Source: Candidatus Iainarchaeum sp.
GTDB taxonomy: Archaea; Iainarchaeota; Iainarchaeia; Iainarchaeales; JACQJH01
Length of the DNA stretch: 32,000 bases
Direction of reading: 5' to 3'
Assembly: GCA_016205145.1 (NCBI GenBank)
Contig: JACQJH010000001.1
Span: forward strand, 90,001-122,000
Made by a program: the position numbers and the translations under genes. The notes below the pieces were generated by a model. The model was not told where the DNA came from and searched no databases. It worked only from the letters and a program-made list of their open reading frames with translations. Positions 8,409-32,000 of this stretch are shown here, in pieces (within the stretch, counting starts at the first letter, position 1; the number at the start of each line of letters is the position of its first letter).

Positions 8409-10781
8409 ATGAACGCACGCCTTGTTTTTGTCCTGCTGCTTGCGTTGCTTGCATTGGCTGGCTGTGCCGCGGTCGACAAGAAGACAATCGAGGCGTTCAA
8501 GGCAATTCCTGAAGTGCAGTCTTTTCTCGCGCAGAACCCCGATGCGCAGGTAACAGGCTATTCGCTTGACAAGCTGACGGTTGAAGGGTCCAAAAAGGAG
8601 CTCCTGAAGCAGTGCCCTGACCTGGAAATCAAGGACTATTTCCTGGTTTCGGCGAAATCCAAGGACGAAAGGCTTGAGGCATTGCTTGACAGGAAGTCAA
8701 GGGAAGTTGCCTGCATTTTGCGCACTAAAACCGCGAGGTGCGCCCTGGACGACTTCAAGTGCAGTGAAAGCGCCGGTCAGGGACAGGCAAAGCCGAAGTG
8801 CGTGGAAGGCGAGGTTTTGTGCAGCAACCAGTGCGTTGTCCCGTTGTGCGCATCTAACAGCGAATGCAACGACAATGACGCCAAAACCACTGACACGTGC
8901 AGCAGCGCGGGCAAATGCAATGCGAAATGCTCCAACAAGGAGGTGACCTGCAGGCCCAACCAGCTTTTGTGCAACGGCGCGTGCAAGAATGTTGCGTGCA
9001 GGGAGGACAAGGACTGCAATGACAGGGAAAGCCTTACAACTGACAAGTGCAGGAAACCGGCGTCATGCGAATCCTTCTGCGAAAACACGCCTTCAAGATA
9101 CCCGGTAAAAGTAAGCGTGCTGTCCGTTGACGATTTTTCGCCCAAGGTTGACGGCCCAATCAGCATTTTTGTCGGAGTAGCCAATCCTGACAACCACCAG
9201 TTGCAGTATACCCTGTTTGCCGGCAAGAAGGCGTTTTCAAACGTTGCCGCCATCAAGACGACAATCCTTGATTCAGGAAAGCAGAAAATCAAGGCGGTAA
9301 TCCACGACGTTGAAGCGGACGAGAACGTTTCCAAGGAAATCGAAATCAATGTGCGGCCGGCAACCGCAACTTCCCTGTGCGCGATTGACGAGAACTGCGA
9401 CGACGGCATAGACGGATCAGTCGACAAGTGCGAGAAGGCAGGCACCTGGGATGCACTGTGCAGGAACACTTACGCTGATTCTTCGCAAAAAGCGCTTCCA
9501 TCGATAGCGGGCTTTTCAAAGGCAAAAACCGAAAGCCTGAAATGGATTGAAGGCGGAACAAAAACCGTTTACTCGAAAGGCGGCGTGTCGGTTGAAGTGC
9601 TTGTCCTGCCGCTCAAAAACCATTTCCTGGCACTGGATTTTGCTTCAAAAAGCCTTGACACGTTCCAGAAAAAAACCTTTGTCGACGAAAACGGCGGCTA
9701 TTTCACTGCAAGCTATTTCACCTATTCAAAGGTTTTCTGGGTATCCGGCAACAACGCTGTAGCAGTAATGGCCCTGAACAAGGAAAAAGTCGACCTGGAG
9801 CAGTTCAGGAGCGCGCTCTTTGAAGTGCTTCCAAGCAATTCTGCTGCGCAGGGCATCTGCAGGCGCGGCGAGATTGCCTGCAACAACGAGTGCATCAAGC
9901 CTGTCTGCGTTAAGGATCTGGACTGCAATGACAAGAACACTGGCACTGATGACAGGTGCGAGAAGTCAAACAGCTGTGAAGCGGAGTGCAAGCATTCTGA
10001 TTTCGCTTTGCCTCCCGCCATAGACTATGTTTCATCGGATGTTTTCCGGCCAAATGCCGGGCAGAACTTTTCAGTCGCAATGTCCGCTGTCAGCGTTTCC
10101 GGCAACGCCCTGGATTACTCGATTGCCTTCGGGTTGAACGAGTTCAAGGGCAAGCCATCCGCAACGAATTGGTTTTCAAAAGCAGGCAAGCAGAAAGTGA
10201 AGCTGACTGCAAGAGACGTTGTTTCGGGAAAAACAGCAGTCAAGGAGCTTGAATTCAATATCCTTGCCACCACCGCGGCGCCGAGGTGCACTGCGGATGC
10301 CAACTGCTCCGACGGCATAGCAACGACAATCGATTACTGCCAGGGTTCAGGCACCGCCGGCTCGTTCTGCAAGAACATCCCTGAGACCAGCGAGGAAAAG
10401 CAGTTTGCCCCGAAGCTCGGCGGTTTCAAGCTTTCGGTTTTGCCGGACGTCGTTTTCCCGGTCCCGGCAAGAAAAGCGGTTTACGAGAACAACGGCCTGA
10501 AGGCGGAGGTTTTCATAGCTGAATTTGAAAGCCACGAGCGCGCTCTCGATTTTGTTTACAACGGCCTGAAGACCTTCCCGAAAGAGGGAACCGAAACTTT
10601 CAAGCAGAGTTTCGGCGGCTACTTCCAGCGCAGTTACCTGTCTTACCGCAAGGTTGCATGGGTTTCCGAGAACAAGGCAGTGCAGGTTTCGTCCTACAAC
10701 GCGGAAGCGCTTGACCTCAACGCCTTGTCCGACTATTACATGATAAATTATCCGAGCAAGACAGCCCAGCCGGCAAGCTAA
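8409..10781 (+). CDS. secreted Cys-rich lipobox protein with an internal ~300-aa duplication
   Basis: 790 aa. Signal plus lipobox: MNARLVFVLLLALLALAGC. Three 8-Cys modules (e.g. CRPNQLLCNGACKNVACREDKDCNDRESLTTDKCRKPASCESFCEN). The unit 8-Cys module / Ig-like segment / short 4-Cys module / alpha-beta domain occurs twice (8949-9836 and 9858-10760). Confidence 0.75.
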   Translation: MNARLVFVLLLALLALAGCAAVDKKTIEAFKAIPEVQSFLAQNPDAQVTGYSLDKLTVEGSKKELLKQCPDLEIKDYFLVSAKSKDERLEALLDRKSREVACILRTKTARCALDDFKCSESAGQGQAKPKCVEGEVLCSNQCVVPLCASNSECNDNDAKTTDTCSSAGKCNAKCSNKEVTCRPNQLLCNGACKNVACREDKDCNDRESLTTDKCRKPASCESFCENTPSRYPVKVSVLSVDDFSPKVDGPISIFVGVANPDNHQLQYTLFAGKKAFSNVAAIKTTILDSGKQKIKAVIHDVEADENVSKEIEINVRPATATSLCAIDENCDDGIDGSVDKCEKAGTWDALCRNTYADSSQKALPSIAGFSKAKTESLKWIEGGTKTVYSKGGVSVEVLVLPLKNHFLALDFASKSLDTFQKKTFVDENGGYFTASYFTYSKVFWVSGNNAVAVMALNKEKVDLEQFRSALFEVLPSNSAAQGICRRGEIACNNECIKPVCVKDLDCNDKNTGTDDRCEKSNSCEAECKHSDFALPPAIDYVSSDVFRPNAGQNFSVAMSAVSVSGNALDYSIAFGLNEFKGKPSATNWFSKAGKQKVKLTARDVVSGKTAVKELEFNILATTAAPRCTADANCSDGIATTIDYCQGSGTAGSFCKNIPETSEEKQFAPKLGGFKLSVLPDVVFPVPARKAVYENNGLKAEVFIAEFESHERALDFVYNGLKTFPKEGTETFKQSFGGYFQRSYLSYRKVAWVSENKAVQVSSYNAEALDLNALSDYYMINYPSKTAQPAS

Positions 10782-10985
10782 GCTTGGTTGAAGCAGCGGT
10801 TCGTTCGCCTATGCATGGGAAATGCCAAAAGGCTTTGATGCTTGAGTTGCGTGCGGACATCTTCACCAGTTGCCGAAAAACAGCATGCGGACGCTCCATT
10901 GCATTTATGAAACCATAAATATAAATATGCGGAATGCCTTTAACCGTATAAAATTAACCAAGATTTTTTTTTTGGAGGCGGAAAA

Positions 10986-11948
10986 GTGAAAAAAACAAGG
11001 ACGATTTTTATTCCACTAATACTGTTTGCCGCATTGGTCTTTGCGGGCTGCACACAGGCAAACGAAAAAACGGGTTTGCTGACACTCAGCGCCAACGAAC
11101 GCGTAAACATTCTTGACGGTGACAGGTACTGGTCATTAGGAGCAGGAAAAGCCGACGGCATAACAGGACAACCGTTGCAGGACACTTCAACAATCTACCC
11201 CGGCTCATTTTCAATAAGAGACCTCTGGGTGCAAAAAGACAGATTATTCATTGACAGAACCGGCAGAATCGGAATCGGAACAACAGCCCCAGAAGTCAAA
11301 CTTGACATAAAAGAATCCGACCAAACATACCCGCCCTTAAGAATAACCAACACGAAAAACGATGGTTACGCAGGCATCGTCTTTGGCACAGATAGCGGCA
11401 TACAAGGGCACATGGGAGCCGCAGGTTATTATGCTGCCAATCAAAAGCTGAGAAACTCCGTTTATTTCGGGTCGACAGGGGACAAAAGAGTGGTAATAAC
11501 CGCAAACGGGATTCCCAGGATGTTCATTGAGCCGACATACTTTCAAAGCTTTATAACAAATTCGCCAGATGCAAATGGATCTACATCCTTTTCTGCCTCA
11601 ACGACCATGACTGCCGGAAACCAAGGAAGAGGAATATATTTTAGGGTAATGGATATTCAGGGAACTCGGACAGCATTGAGCGTCTCATTAGATGCAGGGG
11701 GGTCCACCGGAGTTTTCAGCGTAAACGCCCAAAAACTGGAAACAAGTGGCGGTACTTCATTCACGGCACCACAGACCGCCTTGTCTGTAACACCGGAAAC
11801 AATAAGGTTAACATTACTGAATGGCGCAAGAATAAAGATAGCGTCCTCCGCACCGGCTAACAGGCAGCTTTGTATTACTGGACAGCAAGAATTGGGTTTC
11901 TGTTCGAGTGTAAATGCGGATGGTACGTGCACATGCGTGCCAGTTTAA
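10986..11948 (+). CDS. lipobox surface protein with a tail-fibre-like GIGTT motif; paralog of 31240-32000
   Basis: GTG start 7 nt after GGAGG. MKKTRTIFIPLILFAALVFAGC is a signal plus lipobox. Contains DRTGRIGIGTTAPEVKLDIKESD and a C-terminal 4-Cys motif CITGQQELGFCSSVNADGTCTC. A 200-nt stretch is ~90% identical to the inverted copy at the window end. Confidence 0.7.
   Translation: MKKTRTIFIPLILFAALVFAGCTQANEKTGLLTLSANERVNILDGDRYWSLGAGKADGITGQPLQDTSTIYPGSFSIRDLWVQKDRLFIDRTGRIGIGTTAPEVKLDIKESDQTYPPLRITNTKNDGYAGIVFGTDSGIQGHMGAAGYYAANQKLRNSVYFGSTGDKRVVITANGIPRMFIEPTYFQSFITNSPDANGSTSFSASTTMTAGNQGRGIYFRVMDIQGTRTALSVSLDAGGSTGVFSVNAQKLETSGGTSFTAPQTALSVTPETIRLTLLNGARIKIASSAPANRQLCITGQQELGFCSSVNADGTCTCVPV
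11217..11416 (+). repeat. left arm of an inverted repeat pair (partner 31796-31995)
   Basis: Hand alignment of 11217-11416 against the reverse complement of 31796-31995 gives 19 mismatches in 200 nt, with identical runs up to 32 nt (gacataaaagaatccgaccaaacatacccgcc). Confidence 0.85.
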
Positions 11949-11963
11949 ATTAGGCAAAACTTT

Positions 11964-11998
11964 AAGCCGGTTTACAGCCGGCTTTTCTTTTTTTCTTC
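11964..11998 (+). terminator. hairpin plus T-tract downstream of 10986-11948
   Basis: aagccgg-tttacag-ccggctt forms a 7-bp stem and is followed by ttctttttttctt. Confidence 0.5.
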
Positions 11999-12106
11999 CA
12001 AAGGTTCCGTGTGTCGCCTGTCCATCTATGGAATTCCTGCGCGGCTGATTTTTTTTCCACAAAAGCGTTAAAATAGTTTCTCCGCTTTTTTTAATCCGGT
12101 GAAAGC

Positions 12107-16813: not shown

Positions 16814-18424
16814 GTGGATCAAAACCTTCCAAAAGGCCAGTCCGCCATAGAATATCTTTTGCTGTTGGGCGCCGCGATTTTGATTGCCGCGGTTGTCGTT
16901 GCCTTGATTATTTTTGTGGGTTCCGGGGGCAAGCAGTCGGCGCAAAGAGGGTCGCAGACTGTTGCTGTAGCGCAGGGGAATCTTTCCAAATCCCTTGGCC
17001 TGCCAGGCCCCATCACCGACCGCGGCGGCGGAATTTTTGATTTGAAAAAGGATTTTGGCGCGAAAGGCGACGGGGTTTCCGACGATTATGAATCGTTCAT
17101 TGCTGCTGCGGCCAAGCTGAGCGGTTCGACTGACGCAACGCTTGTCATTCCTGCAGGGGACTATAAGATTGACCGGTACAAGATTTTGGCTGCGACTTCC
17201 GACGGCAGGCTTCCAAATGGCGTAACCGACATCAAGTTTTCCGGATGCAACGGCCTGGAAATTGTCGGCTTGGGAAAGGACGCATCGGGAAACTACAAGG
17301 CAAAAGTCGAGGTCAAGGGCGACTTTTACAGGTCGGCGGACCGCAGTGCCGTCAATGCCGCGGGCGTGACGGTGTGGAGTTCCAATTCCGGTTCGGTCAC
17401 GCCGTTTTATTTCGATCACTGTAACGGATTTTCCATTTCCGGCTTGGAATTGTACGGCAACAACGACAAGATGTCGCACGATCCGCGCGTCAGAGAACAC
17501 CCGTCAGGAATGGGCATTGCGACTTATGGCTGCAAAAATTATTCGATTTCCGACATTTTTGTGCACAACTTCCAGACGGACGGCATTTACCTTGGCGGCT
17601 CGGCAAGCCCCGTGGATTCGGGCGCAACCGTTGACGGCGTGGTTTCAAGCAGCAACGGCAGGCAGGGCCTCAGCATAATTCAGGTGAAAAACTCGACAAT
17701 AAAAAACAGCGTTTTCAAGGACACCGGCATTACGGGCGGAAGCGACACAGGATATAATCCGAGGGCCGGCGTTGACATCGAGCCGAACGTGAACGTCCCC
17801 AACATAACCGAAAATCTTGTTTTTGAAAACGACGAGTTCAGCAACAACCGCGGCTACCAGATTGTTTCAAGCGCTTATGTTGGCGGAATCGTGGTCAGGA
17901 ATTCAAGGGTTTTTTCGGGAAACCAGCGCAAGCTCGCCTATTTCAGGGTGAACGGCATTACAATCGAGGGCTCCGAATTCAAGACTTCTGCAAGGGAGTT
18001 TGCCCAGGACTGGGACAAGAGCGGATTCGGGGTCACTCTCATGGCGGGCGGAACCGCGCTTATAAAAAACAATCTCATAGAGGCATCCTCGTTGGCGTAT
18101 CCTGTGAAAACCGTTGGAATCCACAGGCCTTACGTGCACTTCTTTTCGGGAAGCGGGATAACCTTTGCGGGCAACAGAATTTCCACCGACTCAAGCTTTT
18201 TTTATCCCATTTCAGGGCAGGCTTATGACACCGCAATTTATTTGAACGTCGGCGAATCCTCGAACAACACTTTTTCGACCGGCATGACCGGCTTAAACCA
18301 TTTCGCAGTCGTTTACGGCCCGGCCACAAAAGTCGTTTCAGACGCGTTTTTGCCGCGGGACAATTTCAGGCCGCAGCCGGGATATGTTTGGACTGGCGCA
18401 GGCAACTCTTATTCGCAGAACTGA
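16814..18424 (+). CDS. class III (prepilin-type) signal peptide fused to a right-handed beta-helix, pectate-lyase-superfamily domain
   Basis: GTG start. N-terminus MDQNLPKG/QSAIEYLLLLGAAILIAAVVVALI (basic residue-Gly, then Q at +1, E at +5, then a hydrophobic helix). Followed by FDLKKDFGAKGDGVSDDYESF..VIPAGDY and repeated PbH1-like turns: NGFSISGLELYGNN, YSISDIFVHNFQTDGIYLGG, GLSIIQVKNSTIKNSVF, LVFENDEFSNN. Confidence 0.8.
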   Translation: MDQNLPKGQSAIEYLLLLGAAILIAAVVVALIIFVGSGGKQSAQRGSQTVAVAQGNLSKSLGLPGPITDRGGGIFDLKKDFGAKGDGVSDDYESFIAAAAKLSGSTDATLVIPAGDYKIDRYKILAATSDGRLPNGVTDIKFSGCNGLEIVGLGKDASGNYKAKVEVKGDFYRSADRSAVNAAGVTVWSSNSGSVTPFYFDHCNGFSISGLELYGNNDKMSHDPRVREHPSGMGIATYGCKNYSISDIFVHNFQTDGIYLGGSASPVDSGATVDGVVSSSNGRQGLSIIQVKNSTIKNSVFKDTGITGGSDTGYNPRAGVDIEPNVNVPNITENLVFENDEFSNNRGYQIVSSAYVGGIVVRNSRVFSGNQRKLAYFRVNGITIEGSEFKTSAREFAQDWDKSGFGVTLMAGGTALIKNNLIEASSLAYPVKTVGIHRPYVHFFSGSGITFAGNRISTDSSFFYPISGQAYDTAIYLNVGESSNNTFSTGMTGLNHFAVVYGPATKVVSDAFLPRDNFRPQPGYVWTGAGNSYSQN

Positions 18425-18483
18425 CGTTTGCCTTTTGTGCACTTGGGCGTGCCAAAGGATTTAATTTGTGTGAATGATATTTG

Positions 18484-20031
18484 ATGGTGAAACCGATGTT
18501 TTCCCGTGGCCAGTCCGCAATCGAGTATCTGCTGTTGCTTGGCGCCGCGATTTTGATTGCCGCGGTTGTCGTTGCCTTGATTTCTTTTGTGGGTTCGGGC
18601 GGAAAGACTTCGGCGCAGGAATCAGGCGTGCAGCAGAGGCTGGCAATGCAGAACCTTGCGGCTGTTGGGGGCATGGGTTTCTCCTATTCCTGTGTTGCTA
18701 ATGGTGTCTGCGAAGCCGATGAAACAATGCAGTCCTGTTCCGCGGACTGTGCTGGCAAGCCTTTCAGGCAGTACCTGCATTTTTATTCGGCGGAGGCGGG
18801 GGGTTCTGAGGTTTCTTCCGTGCCGGCGCCCATGCTTAACGTGCCCGCTTCGGGTTTGCGGCATTATATCTATGTCGAGCTTTCCGAAATGCACGGGCAT
18901 CTCAGTGTTTACCGTTCCGCCACCGTAAACAATGCGAATAACCGGTCTGTCGCGCTTTCACCCGGCGAAATCGACGCGCTGTTCAATCTTTACGGCGTGG
19001 AAACGGGCAATCCTGTTAGAGGGAAGAGCATGAACATGAGCATACTGCAGCGTGCCGACGTGCAGAAAATCCATCATGAACTTGCACAAGGCAATCCTGC
19101 GTATAATGCAAAGTACGGCAATGGCGGCCTGGAAACAGGGGTCGGGCTTGACGGTTCCGGAATGCCCGTTCTTGATGCTTCCGACAAGCTTGTGCCGGAC
19201 AGACCGGTACAGGATTACCAAGACGGCAAAACAATGCTGTGGCCGTTTTACTACAATGCCAGCGGCAAGCATAAGATGAGGGTTCTCTGGAACCTTAACA
19301 GCCCGGCGGTCAGGGAATATCTTGTGCGGTACGGCGTGAAAACCGCCTCTTTCAGTCCAAGCGGCGACCTGTTTATTGACAACACTATTTTTCCGGGCCA
19401 GGTGCTGGAGGATTATTCATATGTTTTTTCAGGTGCAAGGAACGGCCTTGCGGCGCATCTTTCCGGCATTACATTGGAAATTCGGGCAGAAATCGTGAAA
19501 CGGCTTGACGGAAAGGGGCTGATAATGAACGCTCTCAGGTTCACAAACTCCGACAATGAGATATTTTCTGATGCTGTTGTTGATTCCGGCCAGTTTGACG
19601 GTTTGATGGCCGAAAACCAGTTTTGGCGTGATGGCATTGCCATTGGCGGTTCTCCAAGGGGTGCGACGTCCGTTGCATGGTACCGGGATTTGACGCAGAA
19701 AATGAAATCAAAAGGCAAAAAGATTCTTTTTACGGCCTCCGGCTCCGGTTTTACGCGGGCTGATCCCTCAAAGATTTTGCCAGTTTGGTTATGGTTGCAC
19801 TTGGTTGCTGATGACAGCACGTATTTTCTATTGCCGGGCAATGGAGCCGATGGCGATTCGTTTGATAACCAGTTCCTTCCGTTTGTTTTTCCGCTCGGCT
19901 ATCCGCTTGACCAAGCACCGGTGCAGGACGGCAGTGTGTGGAGCAGGCGCTATGAGCGCGGCACGATTGTTTTTGACATTTCAAGCGGAAGGCTTGACGC
20001 CATAAGGTTCGAGGAAAACCCGCCCGGGTGA
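18484..20031 (+). CDS. class III (prepilin-type) signal peptide fused to a Cys mini-module and a GH-like domain; paralog of 26452-28209
   Basis: N-terminus M(VKPM)FSRG/QSAIEYLLLLGAAILIAAVVVALI; alternative ATG at 18496. 18541-18582 is 42/42 identical to 16868-16909. CVANGVCEADETMQSCSADC is followed by ~430 aa collinear with the 26452 gene (SGQFDGLMAEN, WLWLHLVADD, GYPLDQAPVQDGSVWSRRYERGTIVFD). The enzymatic family is not confidently named. Confidence 0.8.
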   Translation: MVKPMFSRGQSAIEYLLLLGAAILIAAVVVALISFVGSGGKTSAQESGVQQRLAMQNLAAVGGMGFSYSCVANGVCEADETMQSCSADCAGKPFRQYLHFYSAEAGGSEVSSVPAPMLNVPASGLRHYIYVELSEMHGHLSVYRSATVNNANNRSVALSPGEIDALFNLYGVETGNPVRGKSMNMSILQRADVQKIHHELAQGNPAYNAKYGNGGLETGVGLDGSGMPVLDASDKLVPDRPVQDYQDGKTMLWPFYYNASGKHKMRVLWNLNSPAVREYLVRYGVKTASFSPSGDLFIDNTIFPGQVLEDYSYVFSGARNGLAAHLSGITLEIRAEIVKRLDGKGLIMNALRFTNSDNEIFSDAVVDSGQFDGLMAENQFWRDGIAIGGSPRGATSVAWYRDLTQKMKSKGKKILFTASGSGFTRADPSKILPVWLWLHLVADDSTYFLLPGNGADGDSFDNQFLPFVFPLGYPLDQAPVQDGSVWSRRYERGTIVFDISSGRLDAIRFEENPPG

Positions 20032-21665: not shown

Positions 21666-23285
21666 TTATTTTTTGCCAATGCGCTCCAGCTTTTCATCCG
21701 CCTTCTTTTCCGCTTCCAGCCTTTCCAGGCCCGCGCCTTTCTCGTAGACGAATTTCATGAGTTCGAAGACAAGCGGGGTCGCCTTTTTCGCCTGATGGAA
21801 CATTTCGATTGAAACCCTTCGGTAGTCGGCGTGTCCCTGCGGCGTCGACCTCAGCTCAACCAAGTGGTACATTTCACGCGCGTTGAGAGTGAAATACCAT
21901 CTTATTTTGTACGCGAGCGGGACAACGTATTGTGCCTGCAACGGCATTTCCTTCGCGATTTTATCGTAAGTTTCCTTCGCTCCTGCCATTGCCTTTTCAA
22001 ATTCCTTCAAAACGCCCGCCTTTTCCAGTTCGGGATAAGTGTCATAGCCGAAGTTTGCCGTCAAAAGCTGGCGTTCCTGTGTAAGCTGGCGATGTCGGTG
22101 CAAGTCACGGAAGCCGCCGTAATTTGAGAGCAAGTCGAAAGTGTAGTATGCGTTTTCGAAGCTTCGCAAAGGCTTGTGCCTGCGGTTCTGCCTGTGCGCA
22201 AGAGATGCATGGATGACTTTGCGCTTTTCCTCTTCGCCCATTGCGGCAACGATTTTTTTGAGCTGGTGCAGGGGCTTGTCGCTGTGCGCGTAAAGCAGCG
22301 CGCAAACGATTTTGTTGTCGGCTTCCATGTCAAAGTCGACCAGTTCCACTTCCTTTGCCTGCTCCGCATGTTTGCCTGCAAGCAGTTCTTTTGCGGTTGC
22401 GTCAAGGTTTGCGTTCGCCTGCCTGAAAAAATCCTGTGTCGGGCCGCCGTATTTTCCGGCCGCGCGCTTGACGAAAGAAGGAATGTAAGTCAAAAGCTCT
22501 TCGTGCAATGAAGAAGCGATGCCGTTGATTTCCTTCAATGGCGAGGCGTGCATTTTGAGTATGAGGTATTCGAACGCCCTGCCATTGCCGTACAGGCCGA
22601 GGTTTGTCAGCGTTGAAGCAGGCAGGAGGCCGCGCAGGAGGTCGCAGGTTTTAGCCTTGATTGTCGACTTGTACGCGCGGTCGGTTGTCTCGGAGTCCTG
22701 CGGAAACCATTCCTCGGCCTGTGTTCTCACTTTCGGCACGAGTTCGGCGTACGTGCCGAACAGCAAATCGCACGTTTCCACGTAATCCTTTTCGAATGCC
22801 GACTGCATTATGCCAGGCTCGAGCAGGTACTGGTATCGGCCGCCCTCTTTCTCGTCAAAGTAAACGTAGCGCGTGCTTTTTTCCAGGGGGGAGAGGCCAA
22901 TGCGTGAATCCTCGAGGACTTTGCTTGCGATGATTGAAACCTTTTCGCATGCGACGTGCGCTCCGCCTAATTCCGCGACGGAATCGTCGCCGTAGCCGAC
23001 CAGAACGCGGTCGTAAAACTCTTCGGCTTTCTTGGTTGCGATTGCCTGCTGTTCTCCGTTTCCAAGTGAATAGTTGACGATTTCCCGGAAGCCGGATTCC
23101 TTGTCGGCAATGAATTCGTCGAGCAAAAGCCTGCGCAATGGTTTCGGCGAGCGCGAATAGCGCGAGAACAGTGCGCCTGAAACGACTTCGGGCAGGTTTT
23201 TGAGGACAAAGACGTTTTTGTCCATGTTCGAAAAAAACGGTTCCAGGATTTTCCGCTCTTCCGAGGAAAAAGAATTTTCCGCCAT
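21666..23285 (-). CDS. long-form ThyX-like (Thy1-fold) protein, putative FAD-dependent thymidylate synthase
   Basis: 539 aa. The C-terminal half has FRDLHRHRQLTQERQ and TLNAREMYHLVELRSTPQGHADYR, which align with the ThyX RHR motif and NxRxLxxxxxLR...H/Q region. N-terminal GALFSRYSRS suggests a second, degenerate copy. Confidence 0.6.
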   Translation of the reverse strand: MAENSFSSEERKILEPFFSNMDKNVFVLKNLPEVVSGALFSRYSRSPKPLRRLLLDEFIADKESGFREIVNYSLGNGEQQAIATKKAEEFYDRVLVGYGDDSVAELGGAHVACEKVSIIASKVLEDSRIGLSPLEKSTRYVYFDEKEGGRYQYLLEPGIMQSAFEKDYVETCDLLFGTYAELVPKVRTQAEEWFPQDSETTDRAYKSTIKAKTCDLLRGLLPASTLTNLGLYGNGRAFEYLILKMHASPLKEINGIASSLHEELLTYIPSFVKRAAGKYGGPTQDFFRQANANLDATAKELLAGKHAEQAKEVELVDFDMEADNKIVCALLYAHSDKPLHQLKKIVAAMGEEEKRKVIHASLAHRQNRRHKPLRSFENAYYTFDLLSNYGGFRDLHRHRQLTQERQLLTANFGYDTYPELEKAGVLKEFEKAMAGAKETYDKIAKEMPLQAQYVVPLAYKIRWYFTLNAREMYHLVELRSTPQGHADYRRVSIEMFHQAKKATPLVFELMKFVYEKGAGLERLEAEKKADEKLERIGKK

Positions 23286-23350
23286 TGCCCCACCAGACTA
23301 AATTAAAGCAATGGCAATGGTTAAATATTTCACTTTTGATTATTGTTTTC

Positions 23351-26300
23351 ATGCCCCATAAAACCGGCCGGCCGCGCCATTATTCCGACAGGGCCATTAA
23401 GCGGCCCGGAAGAGGCTTTTCGCATGGCCAGGGCTCTTTGGACCGCCTGATTCTCCTCGGAATCGTGGTTTTGGTTTTCGCAGTCATAATGCTTGTTGCC
23501 TTTTCCCGTCCGCATGAAAGGGCTGACGGGAAAGTGCAGGCCTATTATGCGGGGAATGGGCGGAGTGGCGTTCGTGAAGTGTTCGACTTTTTGGGCGTGC
23601 TAAAATTTGGCATGAATTCCGGTTCCGGCGGCCCTGAAATTAAGCCCGCCGTCATTCCGGGTGACGTGAACCAAAGCAAAAAGCCGGATGTCGTGCCCGC
23701 AACAGGCACTGACAAGGAACCCGTGATTCGGGCCTGCAGCAATGACTGTTCTTCCGCCGGCTTGAGGCAGTGTTCCGGTTCCGGCTATAATGTCTGCGGA
23801 AACTTTGACGAAGACGACTGCCTTGAATGGGGTTCCTGGACAGGCTGTCCTGACGGCCGGGCGTGCGCCAACGGAAACTGCGAAGTTTCTCGCGGGGTTT
23901 TTTCTTCTGAGGGCCTTGTTTCATACTGGCGTTTTGATGATTTGTCGGATTCGTTTGGTTCAAATGATTTGGTTATGTCCGGCAATGTTGTTGCGGGTTC
24001 TTCGCCTGATTGCGCTTTCGGCGGCTGCCTTGCCCTTGATTCTTCTTCCGGGCAGGCCGAAGCCAGGGGTTTGCCGGATTCGGGCGGTTTGTCTGATTTG
24101 TCGATTGCGTTGCGCGTCAAGTTTGGCGCCGGTGGCGATACTGCCACCCGGGCCTGGGTGGCGGGCTGGGCCGATGCGCAGGGCCAGGGCGTAGGTTTTT
24201 ACCGCTATGGCGCCAGCCAGCTTGTTTTTTTCGCCAACGGCGCGGATGGCAGTTTGACTGATTGCTGGAGTTCCGCCTTGAATGACGGCAAATGGCACCG
24301 GCTGGCGGGCGAGGCGTCTGAACAGCACATAACCTTGTTTGTGGACGGGTTTCCTCTTTGTTACAAGGCGCGTTCCGGCGCATTTCTTTCCGGCGCCAGC
24401 TTCAAGGCCGGCGGCCCGGTTTCCCCATCTGGCAGCGTTCTTGTTGACGAGCTGATGGTTTTCGACCGTTCGTTCACGCAGTTCGTTCACCCGCAGGCCG
24501 GTTACACTTTGCTGGGCGCTTTGCCATCCAACGCGCTTGGCATGAGGGGGCCGGTTATAGGCGCCGGCGGCGCGGTGCCGGGCGTGTACCTGTTTGACGG
24601 CAAAATATACTTTTTTTCCAGCATGGACGCATACAACTATTATAGCCTTTGCAGTTACGCCGTTTCAGGCAGCTCCGCGCGCTCTTTTGCTGTCGAGTAC
24701 GGTGATCGTTACAATACCTTCTTCGTGGACGGGGGCTTGGTGTGTGCGTGGCCGGCAAACCGCGGGCTCGCCGTTGCGCGTCCGCCTGACGACGGCTATG
24801 CCAATGAAGGGGCGGCCGCAACCACGCGGCTGCAGGCGGGCACGTTCCTGTCAACGGCCGGCCTTGACGGGCTGCCCGTGCACCGCAAGCGCCTAATTAC
24901 CGCGGGCTGGCTCAGCCCTGATTTGAAGTCCTTAAAGGAAGACCTTGGCGTGTACGACGAGTCCGGATTCGACGGCATCGCGATAGACGACGAGGTATTC
25001 TTCAATGAACCGGGCAGGCCGTGGCCATTGAATATATTTCAGAAGACCGCCTTAAGCACGGGCCGCAGGTACCGGGAAGGGCAGTTTGACGCCGTCGCCG
25101 GAGAAGTCGGGCAGGCCCTGGGAAAAGCGAAGAACCTGAAGCATAATTACATGGTACTCTATCTGGGCTGGACGCATTCGTCGGTTCTCGGCAACCACCT
25201 GAGCCCGGTGCTCGATGCGGACGGGATACCGGTATTCGACGCCAACGGCCTTAAGCTCCATAACCTGACTGCGGACGAGCAATGGCAAATCATTGCCGGC
25301 AACGCGCGGGTTGCAGCAGGGCTGGCGAAAAAGGCCGGCCTTGAAGGAATCATAATTGATACTGAACAGAACTATTCGGTCAACACCCAGGACCCCGGTT
25401 ACATTGCTTACAAGGGTTCTCCGCTTACCCTCAGCTACGAACAATCCGTGCCGGTCAATCCGGCGCCGTTCGCCGAGTACGAGGCCGCGGCCCGCCAGCG
25501 GGGGCAACAATTGGCATCCGCGATGGCCGAGGAGTATCCGGACATGACCGTGCTCTTCCATTTTGCGTACAGCCTGTACAGCGACAAGGACAGAAAGGAA
25601 ACAGGCGGAATCGACCAAAAGAGTTATTTGGAACGGTATACCCTACTGCCTGCCTTCATCGACGGCATGCTCGAAGGCGCTCCGGGCATCCGGTTCATTG
25701 ACGGCGACGAGTGGACCTACACCATCCGGCGGCGCGGGCAACTGCTTGACCGCAAGAAGCATTTCCTTGAAAACGCGCTTGAAAAATCCGCCACAAACAC
25801 GCCCGGGAACCGACAGATTGAATACGGTCAAGAGCTGTGGGCTACCGTGCTTGAGCAGACGCCCGATGATGCAGCTTGGGTTGATGTAAACTTTATTCCC
25901 GAAGATGAGATTGAATTGGCTAAGCAGTTCGGATACGGAATCCGCGACGCCTTGCGCGCAAGCGAGGGCATGGTTCTGATTTGGCACGCACAGCGTCCGC
26001 CGTGGCCGGTCTACCGGACTGCAAGAAATGGGCAGAGGTACCGCGCCCAGGGCGTGATGCCCGATTCTTTCAGACAGGCGATAAAGGATGCGCGCAAGAA
26101 TGTCGAGGGCAACACCAATCCGGTGATGCCGGTTGTCGGTTTTGTTTCGGCAGGCACGGGGGAAAAAGTTTCAATCACTTTGCCTGAGGCAAGCGACGCC
26201 GACGGGGATTCCTTGATTACCTGGGTTGACGGCCTGCCGGAAGGCGCGTCTTACGAGCCGCTTTCCCGCACAATCGAATGGCCGAACCCGCGCGCGGGAA

Positions 26301-26377
26301 TCTACTCCCTGTCTTACGGCGCTTCCGACGGCTTTTTGGAAGCCGCGGCACAGTTCAGCCTTGTGATTTACGGCTAG
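23351..26377 (+). CDS. large secreted multidomain protein: possible degenerate class III signal, Cys-rich module, LamG/ConA-like lectin domain, ~550-aa putative TIM-barrel-like domain, C-terminal Ig/cadherin-like domain
   Basis: 1008 aa from ATG 23351; the track start 23285 would abut the divergent gene. FSHG/QGSLDRLILLGIVVLVFAVIMLV. CSNDCSSAGLRQCSGSGYNVCGNFDEDDCLEWGSWTGCPDGRACANGNC. LamG-type GLVSYWRFDDLSDSFGSNDLVMSGN...WHRLAG...LFVDG...VDELMVFDRSF. GFDGIAIDDE and GLEGIIIDTEQNY. C-terminal ITLPEASDADGDSLITWVDGLPEGASYEP...GIYSLSYGASDG. Confidence 0.8.
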   Translation: MPHKTGRPRHYSDRAIKRPGRGFSHGQGSLDRLILLGIVVLVFAVIMLVAFSRPHERADGKVQAYYAGNGRSGVREVFDFLGVLKFGMNSGSGGPEIKPAVIPGDVNQSKKPDVVPATGTDKEPVIRACSNDCSSAGLRQCSGSGYNVCGNFDEDDCLEWGSWTGCPDGRACANGNCEVSRGVFSSEGLVSYWRFDDLSDSFGSNDLVMSGNVVAGSSPDCAFGGCLALDSSSGQAEARGLPDSGGLSDLSIALRVKFGAGGDTATRAWVAGWADAQGQGVGFYRYGASQLVFFANGADGSLTDCWSSALNDGKWHRLAGEASEQHITLFVDGFPLCYKARSGAFLSGASFKAGGPVSPSGSVLVDELMVFDRSFTQFVHPQAGYTLLGALPSNALGMRGPVIGAGGAVPGVYLFDGKIYFFSSMDAYNYYSLCSYAVSGSSARSFAVEYGDRYNTFFVDGGLVCAWPANRGLAVARPPDDGYANEGAAATTRLQAGTFLSTAGLDGLPVHRKRLITAGWLSPDLKSLKEDLGVYDESGFDGIAIDDEVFFNEPGRPWPLNIFQKTALSTGRRYREGQFDAVAGEVGQALGKAKNLKHNYMVLYLGWTHSSVLGNHLSPVLDADGIPVFDANGLKLHNLTADEQWQIIAGNARVAAGLAKKAGLEGIIIDTEQNYSVNTQDPGYIAYKGSPLTLSYEQSVPVNPAPFAEYEAAARQRGQQLASAMAEEYPDMTVLFHFAYSLYSDKDRKETGGIDQKSYLERYTLLPAFIDGMLEGAPGIRFIDGDEWTYTIRRRGQLLDRKKHFLENALEKSATNTPGNRQIEYGQELWATVLEQTPDDAAWVDVNFIPEDEIELAKQFGYGIRDALRASEGMVLIWHAQRPPWPVYRTARNGQRYRAQGVMPDSFRQAIKDARKNVEGNTNPVMPVVGFVSAGTGEKVSITLPEASDADGDSLITWVDGLPEGASYEPLSRTIEWPNPRAGIYSLSYGASDGFLEAAAQFSLVIYG

Positions 26378-26417: not shown

Positions 26418-26492
26418 CTGTTTTAAAAAACCTTTCAGGGCAATCGTTTTTATGCATCCAAGCGACGCCATCAAGGGAACCGCGTCAAAAAG
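26418..26492 (+). repeat. direct repeat copy A: promoter plus first 13 codons (partner 28245-28320)
   Basis: ctgttttaaaaaacctttcagggcaatcgtttttatgcatccaagcgacgccatcaagggaaccgcgtcaaaaag is ~84% identical to copy B, with an identical 21-nt core cgtttttatgcatccaagcga. The TATA-like ttttaaaaaa (26421-26430) lies ~26 nt upstream of the conserved ATG at 26452. Confidence 0.85.
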
Positions 26493-28209
26493 ATTTTTCA
26501 TGCCGCATTTGAAACCGGTTGTTGTCTGCGCATTTGTGTTGCTTGTTTTGCTTTCCGGTTGCACCGCCACAAAAAGCAAAGGCGTGGAAAAGCCGGTTGA
26601 TTCCGACAAAAACTTTTTGGATTCAAACCAAGCCAAGTCCGCGCCCGAAACTGGCGGGCCGCGACAGCCGCCAACCACGGAATTGGTTGCTGAACAACCG
26701 GACGCCAATGTTCCGGATGCAAACGCCGGCGCACCCGACGTGAATGCAGCGGCTGCTGTCGTGTTTTGTAACCGGAACGGCGCCTGCGACACAAACGAGT
26801 CCGCGGTTTCCTGTCCGGCCGATTGTGCCATTCTTTCCGGAGGCGGAGGAGGCGGCAATTCGCCACAGCCGCCGTCAGGAAACGATAGCGGTTCGTGCAA
26901 TTCGGACGGCGCATGCAACGGAAACGAGGACACAGCTTCATGCCCTGCTGACTGCAGTGTAAGGCAGTTCAGGCATTATTTGCGGTTTTATGCTTTGGAT
27001 TACTATAATCGGTTTTCAACAAAGCCGCCGGCGCCGGAAGGGCTGGTTGAATTCACCATCACGCAGGGCACGCCTTTTGGCAACCTGCAGGATTATACTC
27101 ATTTTAATGTGACGGATTCCGGCCATGTTGTTTTGACAACTTCCACTGCGCCCAAAACTCTTGTTGCGTTGAGCCAAAGCGAGCTTGACGGCTTGTTTGC
27201 GCAGTATGGTTTTGGCGGGGATAAAAACAACATCTATTCTGGCGTGATTGCAAGGGCTGAAGTCGGGAAAATCCATGAGGAACTTGTAGAACGCCATCCG
27301 GAGCTTTTTCCGAACGGCACTGAATTGTTTGTCGGCGCCGTCATAGGGCCGGACGGGTTGCCCGAGCTCGTGGACAACTTTCCGGTCAGGGAAAGAAGCG
27401 ACATTGCCGACTACCAGCTTGGCAAAACAATGGTTTACCCGCTTCCATATTCGCCGGTCGGCTACGGGCGGTACCGGACGCTTTGGAATCACGGCAGCTG
27501 GGCGGTCAGGGTATATCTTGCAAGAAGGGCCAATAAGCTGGTGAATGGCGTTCCAGGCGTGGAGAATATTTTTTTGGATAACGTGCAATTGCCGGCTTAT
27601 ATCAAATATCTTGGCTCCCGTGTTGGTTCGGTTCCGGTGCCAAATTATGTTTCGCCCGGAAGCAGGGATGAACAGTTTGCTGTTTATGCGAACAATTTTG
27701 TTTCGGTTCTTACTGCCGTTCGCGTAAAAACCGGCGCAAAAATGCTTCTTAACGGTTTGTATGAAGTGAAGGCTAACCAAAGCATTTTTTTTCAAAAACT
27801 AATTGCGTCCGGCCAGTTTGACGGCCTTATGACGGAAAACGGGTTTTTTGCTGACGGCGTGGAAAACAATTTGGGCGGCAGCGCGGCAAGCGTGCAATGG
27901 TACTGGGATCAGGTGCAGTGGTTGAAGCAAAACGGCAAAAACGCGGTTTTTTTGGCGGGCGGGAAGGACGCTTCGAAGGCATCCAAGGCCTGGCTTTGGG
28001 TGCATTTAGTTGCTGACACCAATGTTTTCTTTTCGACCAATCCCAATGAACATTTTGACGTTTACGATTCTCCTTTGGGGTATCCTCTTGACCAGGCTCC
28101 GGTAAAAAACGGCAGCGTGTGGAGCAGGCGCTACGAGCGCGGCACGATTGTCTTTGACGTTTCGGGCGGAAGGCTTGACGACATAAAGTTTGTCGAAGGC
28201 CCGGCATAG
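26452..28209 (+). CDS. lipobox-anchored GH-like protein with two Cys mini-modules; paralog of 18484-20031
   Basis: MHPSDAIKGTASKRFFMPHLKPVVVCAFVLLVLLSGC; alternative start at 26500. FCNRNGACDTNESAVSCPADCA, a GGGGGG linker and CNSDGACNGNEDTASCPADCS. The body is collinear with the 18484 gene (SGQFDGLMTEN, WLWVHLVADT, GYPLDQAPVKNGSVWSRRYERGTIVFD). Confidence 0.8.
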   Translation: MHPSDAIKGTASKRFFMPHLKPVVVCAFVLLVLLSGCTATKSKGVEKPVDSDKNFLDSNQAKSAPETGGPRQPPTTELVAEQPDANVPDANAGAPDVNAAAAVVFCNRNGACDTNESAVSCPADCAILSGGGGGGNSPQPPSGNDSGSCNSDGACNGNEDTASCPADCSVRQFRHYLRFYALDYYNRFSTKPPAPEGLVEFTITQGTPFGNLQDYTHFNVTDSGHVVLTTSTAPKTLVALSQSELDGLFAQYGFGGDKNNIYSGVIARAEVGKIHEELVERHPELFPNGTELFVGAVIGPDGLPELVDNFPVRERSDIADYQLGKTMVYPLPYSPVGYGRYRTLWNHGSWAVRVYLARRANKLVNGVPGVENIFLDNVQLPAYIKYLGSRVGSVPVPNYVSPGSRDEQFAVYANNFVSVLTAVRVKTGAKMLLNGLYEVKANQSIFFQKLIASGQFDGLMTENGFFADGVENNLGGSAASVQWYWDQVQWLKQNGKNAVFLAGGKDASKASKAWLWVHLVADTNVFFSTNPNEHFDVYDSPLGYPLDQAPVKNGSVWSRRYERGTIVFDVSGGRLDDIKFVEGPA

Positions 28210-28244: not shown

Positions 28245-28320
28245 CTGTTTTAAAAATCCTTTTCCGGCCATTCGTTTTTATGCATCCAAGCGAAGCAATC
28301 CGGGCTTCCGCGTCAAAAAG
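28245..28320 (+). repeat. direct repeat copy B: promoter plus first 13 codons of coaBC
   Basis: ctgttttaaaaatccttttccggccattcgtttttatgcatccaagcgaagcaatccgggcttccgcgtcaaaaag. The TATA-like ttttaaaaa (28248-28256) lies ~28 nt upstream of ATG 28280. Confidence 0.85.
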
Positions 28321-29482
28321 CCTTTACGGAAAGCTCATAGTGTTGGGAGTTTCATCAAGCATTGCCGCAGTGAAGACTGTTGAAATTGCAAGGGAACTGA
28401 TCAGGCACGGCGCGGAAGTGCAGGCAGTGATGTCAAAGGGCGCGGAAGACATCATTGCGCCGGGGGCGCTGGAGTTTGCCACGGGGAAGCCTGTCATAAC
28501 GCATCTCAGCGGAATGGTCGAGCACGTCGACCTGTTCGGAGCGCATGGAAAAGCCGATTTGCTTTTGTTGTGCCCTGCAAGCGCAAACGTGATTGGAAAA
28601 ATCGCGAATGGCATAGCTGATGATGCCCTGACAACCATTGCAATGACTGTTGTTGGGGTGAAAAAGCCAGTCCTGGTCTGCCCGGCAATGCATTTGGAAA
28701 TGTGGCAGAACACTGCCGTCAGGGTGAACGTCGAAAAGCTTGGCGTGCTGGGCGCGGAATTCGTGCCGGCGAAAAGCCTTGAAGGCGCGGAAAAAATCGC
28801 GGACAAGGAAACGATTGTGCTGTTTGTGGAACGGGCGCTTTCCGGCAAAAGGCTTGCAGGCAAAAAGGTTGTCGTTTGCGCCGGCGCAACGCGCGAGGAA
28901 ATCGATCCCGTGCGCGTGCTGACAAACAAGGCATCGGGAAAAACCGGCGAGGAAATCGCAAAAGAGGCTTTCAGGCAGGGCGCACAAACCACACTTATAC
29001 ATAATCGGGATTGTTTTGTTTCCGGCATCAAATGCGTGCAGGCGCAAACCATCGAGGAATTCCGCAAGGCAATCCTTTCGGAGCTTGAAGGCGCGGATGT
29101 TTTCGTCTCGGCGGCGGCAATCGGCGATTTTGTAGTGGAAAAGGCGAAGGACAAGCTTGCTTCGGAAAAAGGCGTTGAATTGAAGTTCAGGCCCGCCCCT
29201 AAAATCCTCGCGGAAGTCGTGAAGAAATTTCCCGATTTGTTCGTTGTCGCGTTCAAGGCGGAAACGAACAAGGGGACGGAAGAGCTTGAAAAAATCGCAA
29301 AGGAAAAGCTGAAGGAACTGAAGCAGGGCTTTGTGGTTGCGAACGACGTGGCACATGGTGGAATGGGAACGGATGAAAATTCGGTTTTGATCGTCGGCAA
29401 AAACTTTTCGGAAAGCGTTTCAGGAAAGAAAAGCCTGATTGCCAGAAAAATCGTGGAAAAAATTGAATGCGGTCTGCCATAA
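28280..29482 (+). CDS. coaBC: bifunctional phosphopantothenoylcysteine decarboxylase / phosphopantothenate-cysteine ligase
   Basis: 400 aa from MHPSEAIRASASKSLYGKLIVLGVSSSIAAVK. CoaC region: PASANVIGKIANGIADDALT. CoaB region: VCAGATREEIDPVRVLTNKASGKTG and AAAIGDF. The start is chosen at the conserved ATG of repeat B rather than the track start 28190. Confidence 0.9.
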   Translation: MHPSEAIRASASKSLYGKLIVLGVSSSIAAVKTVEIARELIRHGAEVQAVMSKGAEDIIAPGALEFATGKPVITHLSGMVEHVDLFGAHGKADLLLLCPASANVIGKIANGIADDALTTIAMTVVGVKKPVLVCPAMHLEMWQNTAVRVNVEKLGVLGAEFVPAKSLEGAEKIADKETIVLFVERALSGKRLAGKKVVVCAGATREEIDPVRVLTNKASGKTGEEIAKEAFRQGAQTTLIHNRDCFVSGIKCVQAQTIEEFRKAILSELEGADVFVSAAAIGDFVVEKAKDKLASEKGVELKFRPAPKILAEVVKKFPDLFVVAFKAETNKGTEELEKIAKEKLKELKQGFVVANDVAHGGMGTDENSVLIVGKNFSESVSGKKSLIARKIVEKIECGLP

Positions 29483-31182: not shown

Positions 31183-31224
31183 ATCGTAAAATAAAAAAGA
31201 AAAAGGCGCCGGCAAACGCCGGCG
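31183..31224 (-). terminator. GC hairpin plus U-tract downstream of the minus-strand paralog
   Basis: On the minus strand, cgccggc-gttt-gccggcg (7-bp stem, 31207-31224) is followed by cctttttcttttttatttt. It starts 16 nt after the stop at 31240-31242. Confidence 0.55.
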
Positions 31225-31239
31225 TTGAAGTGTTTTATT

Positions 31240-32000
31240 TCACTGGCAGCCGCACGTGCCGTCAGCGTTCGGCGCGGTCGAGCAGACGCCGAGCTTATTG
31301 TCCGGGGTAATACACACGATTTTGTTTCTTGCCCCGACCTGGAAGCCGGTGGTTGGCCTATGCCCTCTGTAGCTAAGCAATACGTCTCCGCCCAGCTCAA
31401 TTTGCTTCGCGTCGAGAAAAATATTGCTTTTGCGGCCAACGTAACCGCTTGCCCCATTATTTTCCATGGTAATGCCGGCATAATCATTTGAGCCGGCACT
31501 GCCGGACGGCGCAACAAACTGTTCGTTGCCCTGCTGTCGCAGTTCTATTCTATCGGCACTCACTGAGATACTTGAGTACAAAATGTTTCCGTCTGTCAGG
31601 GGTTGTTTCCGGTCTTCCATGTAAATCCCCCTCTGCACGTGATTTGGCATCCCAGTATTAAGCGATGAGTTCAAGCGAATATATGTAAAACCGTCGGCAT
31701 TTTTCGTCGCTATTTTGGTTGGAATGTCGGCATTTGTGCTGCCAAAATAGACCGAGTTTCTAAGCGTTTCGTTCGCCGCGTTCGGCCCGGCAACGCCCAT
31801 GTGCCCTTGTATGCCGCTGCCCGTGCCAAAGATGAGGCCAGCGTAACCGTCGTTTTTCGTGTTGGTTATTCTGAGCGGCGGGTATGTTTGGTCGGATTCT
31901 TTTATGTCGAGTTTTACTTCCGGTGTTGTGGTTCCGATTCCGATTTTGCCGGTTCTGTCAACGAATAATCTGTCTTTTTGCACCCAGAGGTCCCTGATTG
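31240..32000 (-). CDS. tail-fibre-like GIGTT-motif protein, paralog of 10986-11948; 5' end beyond the window
   Basis: The reading frame stays open to the window edge (..IRDLWVQKDRLFVDRTGKIGIGTTTPEVKLDIKESDQTYPPLRITNTKNDGYAGLIFG...). The C-terminal CITPDNKLGVCSTAPNADGTCGCQ has the same 4-Cys motif as the paralog. The Met at 31983 in the track is internal, judged from the paralog alignment. Confidence 0.7.
   Translation of the reverse strand, partial: IRDLWVQKDRLFVDRTGKIGIGTTTPEVKLDIKESDQTYPPLRITNTKNDGYAGLIFGTGSGIQGHMGVAGPNAANETLRNSVYFGSTNADIPTKIATKNADGFTYIRLNSSLNTGMPNHVQRGIYMEDRKQPLTDGNILYSSISVSADRIELRQQGNEQFVAPSGSAGSNDYAGITMENNGASGYVGRKSNIFLDAKQIELGGDVLLSYRGHRPTTGFQVGARNKIVCITPDNKLGVCSTAPNADGTCGCQ
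31796..31995 (-). repeat. right arm of the inverted repeat pair (partner 11217-11416)
   Basis: See the left arm: ~90% identity over 200 nt in inverted orientation. Confidence 0.85.

Follow-up and report, generated by a model that had tools for sequence, protein, structure and literature searches.

A lipobox protein family with a single fibre-shaft unit, replaced middle regions and a conserved four-cysteine tail in a Candidatus Diapherotrites genome

The closest described counterparts of the protein considered here are the mosaic adhesive trimer (MAT) fibres of Bdellovibrio bacteriovorus, whose non-S74 group includes Bd2133 (PDB 8OND) and Bd1334 (Caulton et al. 2024, PMC10769870). In the Bdellovibrio fibre structures a short motif element, named the "capping loop", opens each beta-helix domain of the trimeric fibre and also occurs in S74-type phage fibres, and a mosaic of conserved parts and swapped tips was described both for MAT fibres and for phage receptor-binding proteins (PMC10769870). 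The S74 group consists of phage tail fibres and tailspikes such as K1F endosialidase and T5 pb1, which end in the intramolecular chaperone and autoprotease domain Peptidase_S74 (PF13884), and of Bd3182 (8ONC). The same repeat unit is found in giant bacterial "GNVGIGTT" proteins with lengths of up to 7,725 aa and up to 43 units. A further point of reference is the foldon of T4 fibritin, a small C-terminal unit able to register three chains.

With the MAT fibres the archaeal family shares the shaft unit with its capping loop, a conserved N-terminal part followed by exchanged and mutually unrelated tips, and a C-terminus that is not of the S74 type, and its members are likewise cell-encoded, probable surface proteins rather than parts of a virion. 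Unlike the MATs, which are bacterial, about 1,000 aa long and built of many repeats, the members of the family are 320-337 aa long, contain one repeat, begin with a lipobox anchor and carry a four-Cys tail after the variable part, and their tips show no similarity to the beta-sandwich, TNF-like or C-type lectin tips of the MATs. The S74 fibres have the repeat and the capping loop in common with the family (RIGIGTTAPEVKLD in the target protein, RVGVGTTAPTSALH in Bd3182), as well as a longer 70-residue unit found in the S74-type protein P0080, and the best matching predicted viral folds belong to S74 proteins; in contrast to the phage fibres, the archaeal proteins are non-viral and possess an N-terminal lipobox, a predicted lipid anchor, in place of baseplate docking. 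The giant "GNVGIGTT" proteins, which form the bulk of the matches reported below, differ in size and copy number and do not have the frame of lipobox plus Cys tail. The likeness to the foldon is an analogy concerning the tail only, in that a fibrous region is followed by some 27-28 conserved residues at the C-terminus; the foldon, unlike the family tail, has no Cys, the two show no sequence similarity, and any shared role would be purely hypothetical.

The two paralogous genes and their surroundings

The target ORF (10986-11948, plus strand) codes for a 320-aa protein identical to HY394_00520 of the NCBI protein collection, from a metagenome-assembled genome (MAG) of Candidatus Diapherotrites, a DPANN archaeon, and starts with GTG. 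Its parts are listed in Table 1, numbered within the window, by which we mean the whole 32-kb stretch of DNA that was analysed. The paralogue HY394_00590 (P0002, 328 aa; 31240 to 32000, minus strand) is cut by the end of the window, which contains its residues 77-328 only, and the full sequence was taken from P0002. The two proteins match with a BLASTP E-value of 4e-60, their identity being about 87% at residues 77-165 and about 25% after that; their genes share a stretch of 259 nt as an inverted repeat (11212-11470 and 31742-32000, 85% identical) with the copies 20 kb apart. Both consist of the same four parts, namely a signal peptide with a lipobox, a conserved N module, a middle that cannot be aligned and a Cys tail. 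The 5' region of the target gene is also present upstream of its relative in contig L001, a 4.6-kb ENA metagenome contig, and may act as a promoter, while the paralogue, like the target, ends in a hairpin followed by a T-run.

Table 1 Features of the target gene and of its paralogue, with positions in the window
Feature	Position	Strand	Remarks
Conserved 5' region of target	10917..10985	+	10917 is the 5' limit of blastn homology to L001
TATA-like A/T-rich boxes	~10916-10928, ~10947-10954	+	Read from sequence
GGAGG	10974-10978	+	8 nt before the GTG start of target
Signal peptide with lipobox (residues 1-22, MKKTRTIFIPLILFAALVFAG-C22)	10986..11051	+	PS51257-style rule
Conserved N module (residues 23-165)	11052..11480	+	Short linker and one fibre-shaft repeat unit
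Capping-loop motif DRLFIDRTGRIGIGTTAPEVKLDIKES (residues 85-111)	11238..11318	+	Sole copy in target; motif HMM 29.1 bits
Variable middle, putative "tip" cassette (residues 166-291)	11481..11858	+	Orphan sequence
Conserved tail (N292...C296-x9-C306-x8-C315-x-C317) and stop	11859..11948	+	Invariant Cys, G, ADGT, N
Terminator-like hairpin (AAGCCGG / CCGGCTT), then T-run	11964..11994	+	Read from sequence
Paralogue N module, part in window (residues 77-165)	31732..32000	-	Inverted repeat I1, 85% DNA identity
Paralogue capping-loop motif	31894-31974	-	
Paralogue variable middle cassette (residues 166-300)	31327..31731	-	No protein similarity to the other types
Paralogue Cys tail, stop and terminator region	31193..31326 (tail 31243-31326, stop 31240-31242)	-	83% DNA identity to L001 3456-3590

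The family turned out to be very small. The earlier note had suggested counting its members in the genome; in about 15 billion proteins the architecture was found only four times, in the two paralogues, in P0003 from contig L001 (337 aa) and in P0163, a 94%-identical variant of P0002. When the family profile was searched against 1.84 billion cluster representatives, only P0001 and P0003 were covered over the full length of the profile among the best 150 of 16,109 matches. The scan of GTDB genomes and JGI metagenomes revealed no further family member; its matches were two multi-repeat bacterial proteins and an unrelated lipoprotein signal peptide.

The lipobox signal proposed earlier for these proteins stood up to inspection: the N-terminus passes a rule in the style of PROSITE PS51257, with K or R within the first seven residues, an uncharged hydrophobic stretch and a Cys, here Cys22, between positions 15 and 35, although position -3 is occupied by F instead of the strict [LVI]. 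The signal peptide is 91-100% identical across all family members. A high prevalence of lipoproteins has been reported for DPANN archaea, in which AliA/AliB carry out the lipidation (PMC12462473). The window codes for another three proteins with a lipobox and for two with a class III (archaeal pilin-type) signal, and surface proteins of both kinds are among the neighbours of the target. Apart from the lipobox Cys, the mature target protein contains four Cys, an even number as in most of the neighbouring secreted proteins, which is compatible with extracellular disulfides but only suggestive of them. Judging by these features, we infer that the protein is exported and lipid-modified.

The location in a cellular genome, which had also been claimed, was confirmed. 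The MAG contig is 612,963 bp long, and the genes in the window include those for GGPP synthase, an aminotransferase, PPDK, ThyX, CoaBC and a DHH-CID protein along with the class III signal-peptide proteins; no genes for capsid, portal, terminase or integrase were detected within the 32 kb, and neither Rfam nor the tRNA scan gave a match in the window. This bears on the suggestion that the target is derived from a virus, being either the protein with which an integrated or degraded archaeal virus bound its receptor, or a lipoprotein captured from a virus that serves as a decoy or in superinfection exclusion. Phage tail-fibre families are indeed among the closest annotated relatives, and PHROG matches at the level of the signal peptide were obtained to Cor and spanin lipoproteins, although with E-values of 0.27-0.9 they are not significant. 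On the other hand, both copies lie among housekeeping genes with no virus genes around them, the locus by coaBC is conserved in a related organism, and the GC content of positions 11001-12000 is 0.47, the lowest value, compared to 0.48-0.61 in the other 1-kb windows. Furthermore, the tblastn search of 50,697 phage records with the N module gave no match at E<=0.01. A prophage origin was rejected on the last of these grounds and on the lack of virus genes in the 32 kb, and a viral derivation of any kind is considered very improbable.

Several other genes in the window code for putative surface proteins. Directly upstream of the target, at 8409-10781 (+), there is a 790-aa lipobox protein with 37 Cys in modules of the type C-x5-C-x10-C-x6-C-x3-C, two internal duplications and a weak PKD match (E=0.0023), by its appearance a Cys-rich surface protein. 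The two adjacent class III signal-peptide proteins at 16814-18424 (+) and 18481-20031 (+) share 85% DNA identity at their N-termini (repeat D3); the former carries a right-handed beta-helix or pectate-lyase-like domain and the latter a GHL15-like C-terminal part, which has a paralogue in the C-terminus of the lipoprotein encoded at 26500-28209 (repeats D1 and D5). The 1030-aa protein at 23285-26377 (+), located in the 20 kb between the paralogues, begins with a membrane segment, contains a Cys-rich stretch as well as a Laminin_G_3 or concanavalin-like lectin domain (E=2e-7), and is a candidate for another surface binding protein. Between the paralogue and coaBC lies a gene at 29597-31009 (+), internally duplicated (30334-30452 and 30712-30830, 85%) and coding for a lipobox protein of 470 aa; it is missing at the equivalent position of L001 (3543-3590), a gene-sized indel at a surface-protein locus. 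Finally, a 77-nt direct repeat (26421-26497 and 28249-28325, 79% identical, core TTTTTATGCATCCAAGCGAnGCnATC...GCGTCAAAAAG) has its copies just 5' of the likely starts of the lipoprotein gene at 26500 and of coaBC, and may represent a shared promoter, leader or small regulatory element.

The N module and its relatives among fibre proteins

The motif DRTG(R/K)IGIGTT(A/T)PEVKLDIKESD, noted earlier in both paralogues, is present in each of them at residues 90-112, and the general capping-loop pattern x-G-x-[VIL]-G-[VIL]-G-T-x-x-P-x-x-x-L-x-[VI] occurs once in the target, at residues 85-111. A motif HMM built from 3,245 motif instances finds one copy in each of three members with scores of 27-29 bits, which argues against a chance match. 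The same HMM gave 0.2 bits or less for two further stretches considered as a second, degenerate capping loop, one before the tail (GARIKIASSAPANRQLCI) and one at KRVVITANG, and both were rejected. No model in Pfam or NCBIfam covers the GIGTT motif. PHROG 9942, annotated as "tail fiber protein", matches residues 85-112 of the target with E=3.6e-4, and PHROG 18345 is a second tail-fibre family that matches it.

Among the sequences of solved structures, the target alone as a phmmer query retrieved Bd2133 (8OND) with E=1.6e-5 and Bd3182 (8OJN/8ONC) with E=0.14, the latter through the alignment of RIGIGTTAPEVKLD with RVGVGTTAPTSALH, and the family profile retrieved 8OND with E=4.4e-7 and 8OML with E=0.018. 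Residues 85-153 of the target align to chain residues 14-84 of 8OND, i.e. to its first beta-helix domain. In the large database the profile matched 16,109 protein clusters at E<=1e-3, all of them through profile positions of about 70-150, and most of these clusters consist of giant proteins, in which as many as 43 stretches match. Out of ten shorter matches scanned with Pfam, three end in Peptidase_S74 and one in an H-type lectin; on the paralogues themselves no Pfam family, Peptidase_S74 included, gave a match at E<=1, and none did at E<=10 on their distal halves. Hence the likeness of the GIGTT motif to a tail-fibre element, proposed in the earlier note, goes beyond mere resemblance, and by these sequence comparisons the N module is homologous to fibre shafts.

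The extent of the shaft unit is suggested by P0080, a protein with Peptidase_S74 that matches residues 38-108 of the target twice (E=3.8e-29) and in which a longer unit (ILDGxRYWxLGAG...FAIRDAW...GNVGIGTT) occurs twice, and the stem from residue ~38 to ~165 was therefore regarded as one such unit. Outside the family P0080 is the closest match to the stem; it is a small S74-type fibre of 427 aa with 70-residue units, encoded on an ENA contig rather than in the window. Its C-terminus, ...KKIVCKGHPEEKHCQ, faintly resembles, perhaps by coincidence, the NKIVC...C-x-CQ with which P0002 and P0003 end; the target itself ends in ...TCTCVPV. Between the family members the N module shows 71-87% amino-acid identity and dS of 0.64-0.87, and dN/dS values of 0.14-0.28 indicate that it is under purifying selection.

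Structure prediction adds to this picture within limits. The full-length AF2 model from an alignment of three sequences had a pLDDT of 31 and was unusable. For the N module, a 31-row alignment of repeat units from the distant matches was used as the input, and the monomer model (pLDDT 69.8, pTM 0.41) is a beta-hairpin meander, open rather than closed globular. It had been proposed to compare the fold with those of fibre and spike proteins, and the best Foldseek matches of this model are indeed fibres: in the PDB Bd2133 (E=0.017) and Bd3182 (E=0.06), followed by T4 gp34 and the Mu tail fibre, and in BFVD (best E=0.008) mainly proteins of the fibre type, above all S74 "intramolecular chaperone" proteins and gp37-type tail fibres. 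None of the matches is significant, however, and the TM scores are low. The model is consistent with a monomer lifted from a trimeric fibre, which by itself is a weak indication.

The same results can be read as describing a monomeric beta-rich secreted binding protein or enzyme in which GIGTT is a local stable turn taken from a repeat protein, with neither trimer nor fibre. The homology is confined to some 70-110 residues, the E-values of the fold search are not significant, and AF2 reaches a pLDDT of about 70 for the monomer without partner chains, all of which would suit such a protein. Nevertheless, all solved or annotated relatives of the shaft unit belong to trimeric fibres, the model with its open meander and low pTM is not a closed globular fold, and no enzyme family matches the target, so we consider a free monomer quite improbable.

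The four-cysteine tail and the replacement of the middle

The middle of the proteins is as divergent as the earlier note had described it: between members its identity is 16-26% with many gaps, and the three types have no pairwise similarity in BLASTP. For the distal half of the target no match was found in Pfam (E<=10), PHROG or PDB, fibre and spike proteins included, nor among the distant relatives. The proposal of diversifying selection, by contrast, could not be upheld, for the synonymous sites of the middle are saturated, compared to dS of 0.64-0.87 in the flanks, and the alignment is arbitrary, which precludes an estimate of dN/dS.

The comparison of the two orthologous loci beside coaBC points to another process. 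P0003 and the paralogue P0002 both adjoin coaBC, and the coaBC genes of the two loci are 88% identical (92% over the MAFFT codon alignment) with dS of 0.34. The DNA of the paralogue matches L001 at 88% over positions 31992-31787, then the match is interrupted for about 460 nt (~31328-31786), and it resumes at 83% over 31327-31193, that is, over the tail and the terminator. In P0163 the 19 substitutions relative to P0002 are distributed evenly over the stem and the middle, with none in the tail. Because the middles are dissimilar, the breakpoints in the DNA are abrupt and the substitutions of P0163 are evenly spread, the pattern was attributed to cassette replacement and not to point-mutational diversification. 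The sequences thus indicate at least three unrelated tip cassettes between conserved 5' parts (putative promoter, signal, stem) and 3' parts (tail, terminator), and a variable distal domain on a conserved proximal part is a feature of the family. Hypervariation of the DGR type was considered as well and rejected, as the variable regions have no repeat partner or template in the window and no reverse transcriptase is encoded among the ORFs.

The replacement matters for an explanation in which the target is a structural lipoprotein of the envelope, for example a spacer or anchor of the S-layer or wall that reuses the fibre-shaft unit as a rigid beta scaffold, its variable middle reflecting relaxed constraint or contact with variable components of the cell itself rather than with foreign cells or particles. 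The lipobox and the surface-protein neighbourhood suit such a role, as do the shortness of the protein with its one repeat and the failure to find a lectin or any other known binding domain, and the conservation of the tail could reflect docking to a partner that is itself conserved. Nonetheless, full replacement of a cassette in genomes as close as those compared here (coaBC dS 0.34) typifies receptor-binding proteins and not spacers, and in proteins that share a cassette type the middle and the stem are equally conserved, which argues against relaxed constraint. A structural role of this kind is thus regarded as unlikely.

The tail comprises the last 28 residues of the target, and its four Cys are invariant in all family members. 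The conserved Cys ending reported before, putatively a knot, is therefore real, but its spacing has to be corrected: the target has C-x9-C-x8-C-x-C and the paralogue C-x9-C-x9-C-x-C, where x10 followed by x9 or x10 had been given. A profile of the tail scores 69-93 bits on the family members and found nothing in Pfam, PDB or PHROGs; among 155 distant relatives there were only unrelated Cys-rich tails (P0047, P0110) with no HMM similarity to that of the family. A search of the large database with the tail profile produced zero matches, but as the family's own members were missed too, despite their scores in the local search, this result carries no weight. Neither the distal half nor the tail has a homologue in the collections searched, which counts against the adhesin reading as far as ligand binding is concerned.

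Proposed arrangement of the protein and its meaning for DPANN archaea

Taken together, the evidence leans modestly towards the target being a short, lipid-anchored and probably homotrimeric fibre-like surface adhesin with exchangeable tips, in which the Cys tail serves as a clasp or folding nucleus. The Sec signal peptide would be cleaved before Cys22, and a lipid on this Cys would tether the protein to the membrane. Residues from ~38 to ~165 may correspond to one shaft unit, including the sole capping loop, of an intertwined homotrimeric beta-helix, on which residues 166-291, wholly different between the members, would make up the distal domain and likely the ligand-binding tip. The 28-residue tail with its four Cys could then act as the C-terminal clasp or folding nucleus in place of the S74 chaperone or a foldon, with disulfides or a metal site keeping the three chains in register. 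New specificities would arise when recombination within the flanking conserved parts swaps the tip cassette. That the chains trimerise, that the protein adheres and that the tail works in this way are inferences. A typical fibre of about 1,000 aa or more consists of many tandem shaft repeats, 10-40 in the relatives, as opposed to the single unit of the target; one shaft unit may not form a fibre, which counts against the fibre reading.

The repeat itself, of the S74/MAT type, is known and very common, and what appears to be new, as far as the sequences tell, is its minimal archaeal form with a lipobox and an orphan Cys tail. Diapherotrites are not known for certain to be host-attached, a further point against the adhesin reading. 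A bolder and rather doubtful extension of the adhesin reading is that the family is a device by which DPANN archaea recognize a host, a particle or prey, in the form of a minimal trimeric fibre with a lipid anchor, its tip cassette being exchanged by recombination between the stem and a "foldon-like" four-Cys clasp. If so, it would be an archaeal counterpart of the Bdellovibrio MAT fibres and of phage receptor-binding proteins, and its Cys tail a module for trimerisation or folding that has not been described before and takes the place of the S74 chaperone. Should the tail prove to be a self-contained unit of this kind, it would also offer a compact new tool for fibre engineering.

The fibre-shaft repeat of phages and MATs thus extends to archaeal cellular genomes, where it occurs as a minimal single unit with a predicted lipid anchor. 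The family provides a testable lead on partner recognition in DPANN archaea, namely an expressible candidate of about 300 aa whose stem has a known fold type and whose tips have been swapped in nature.
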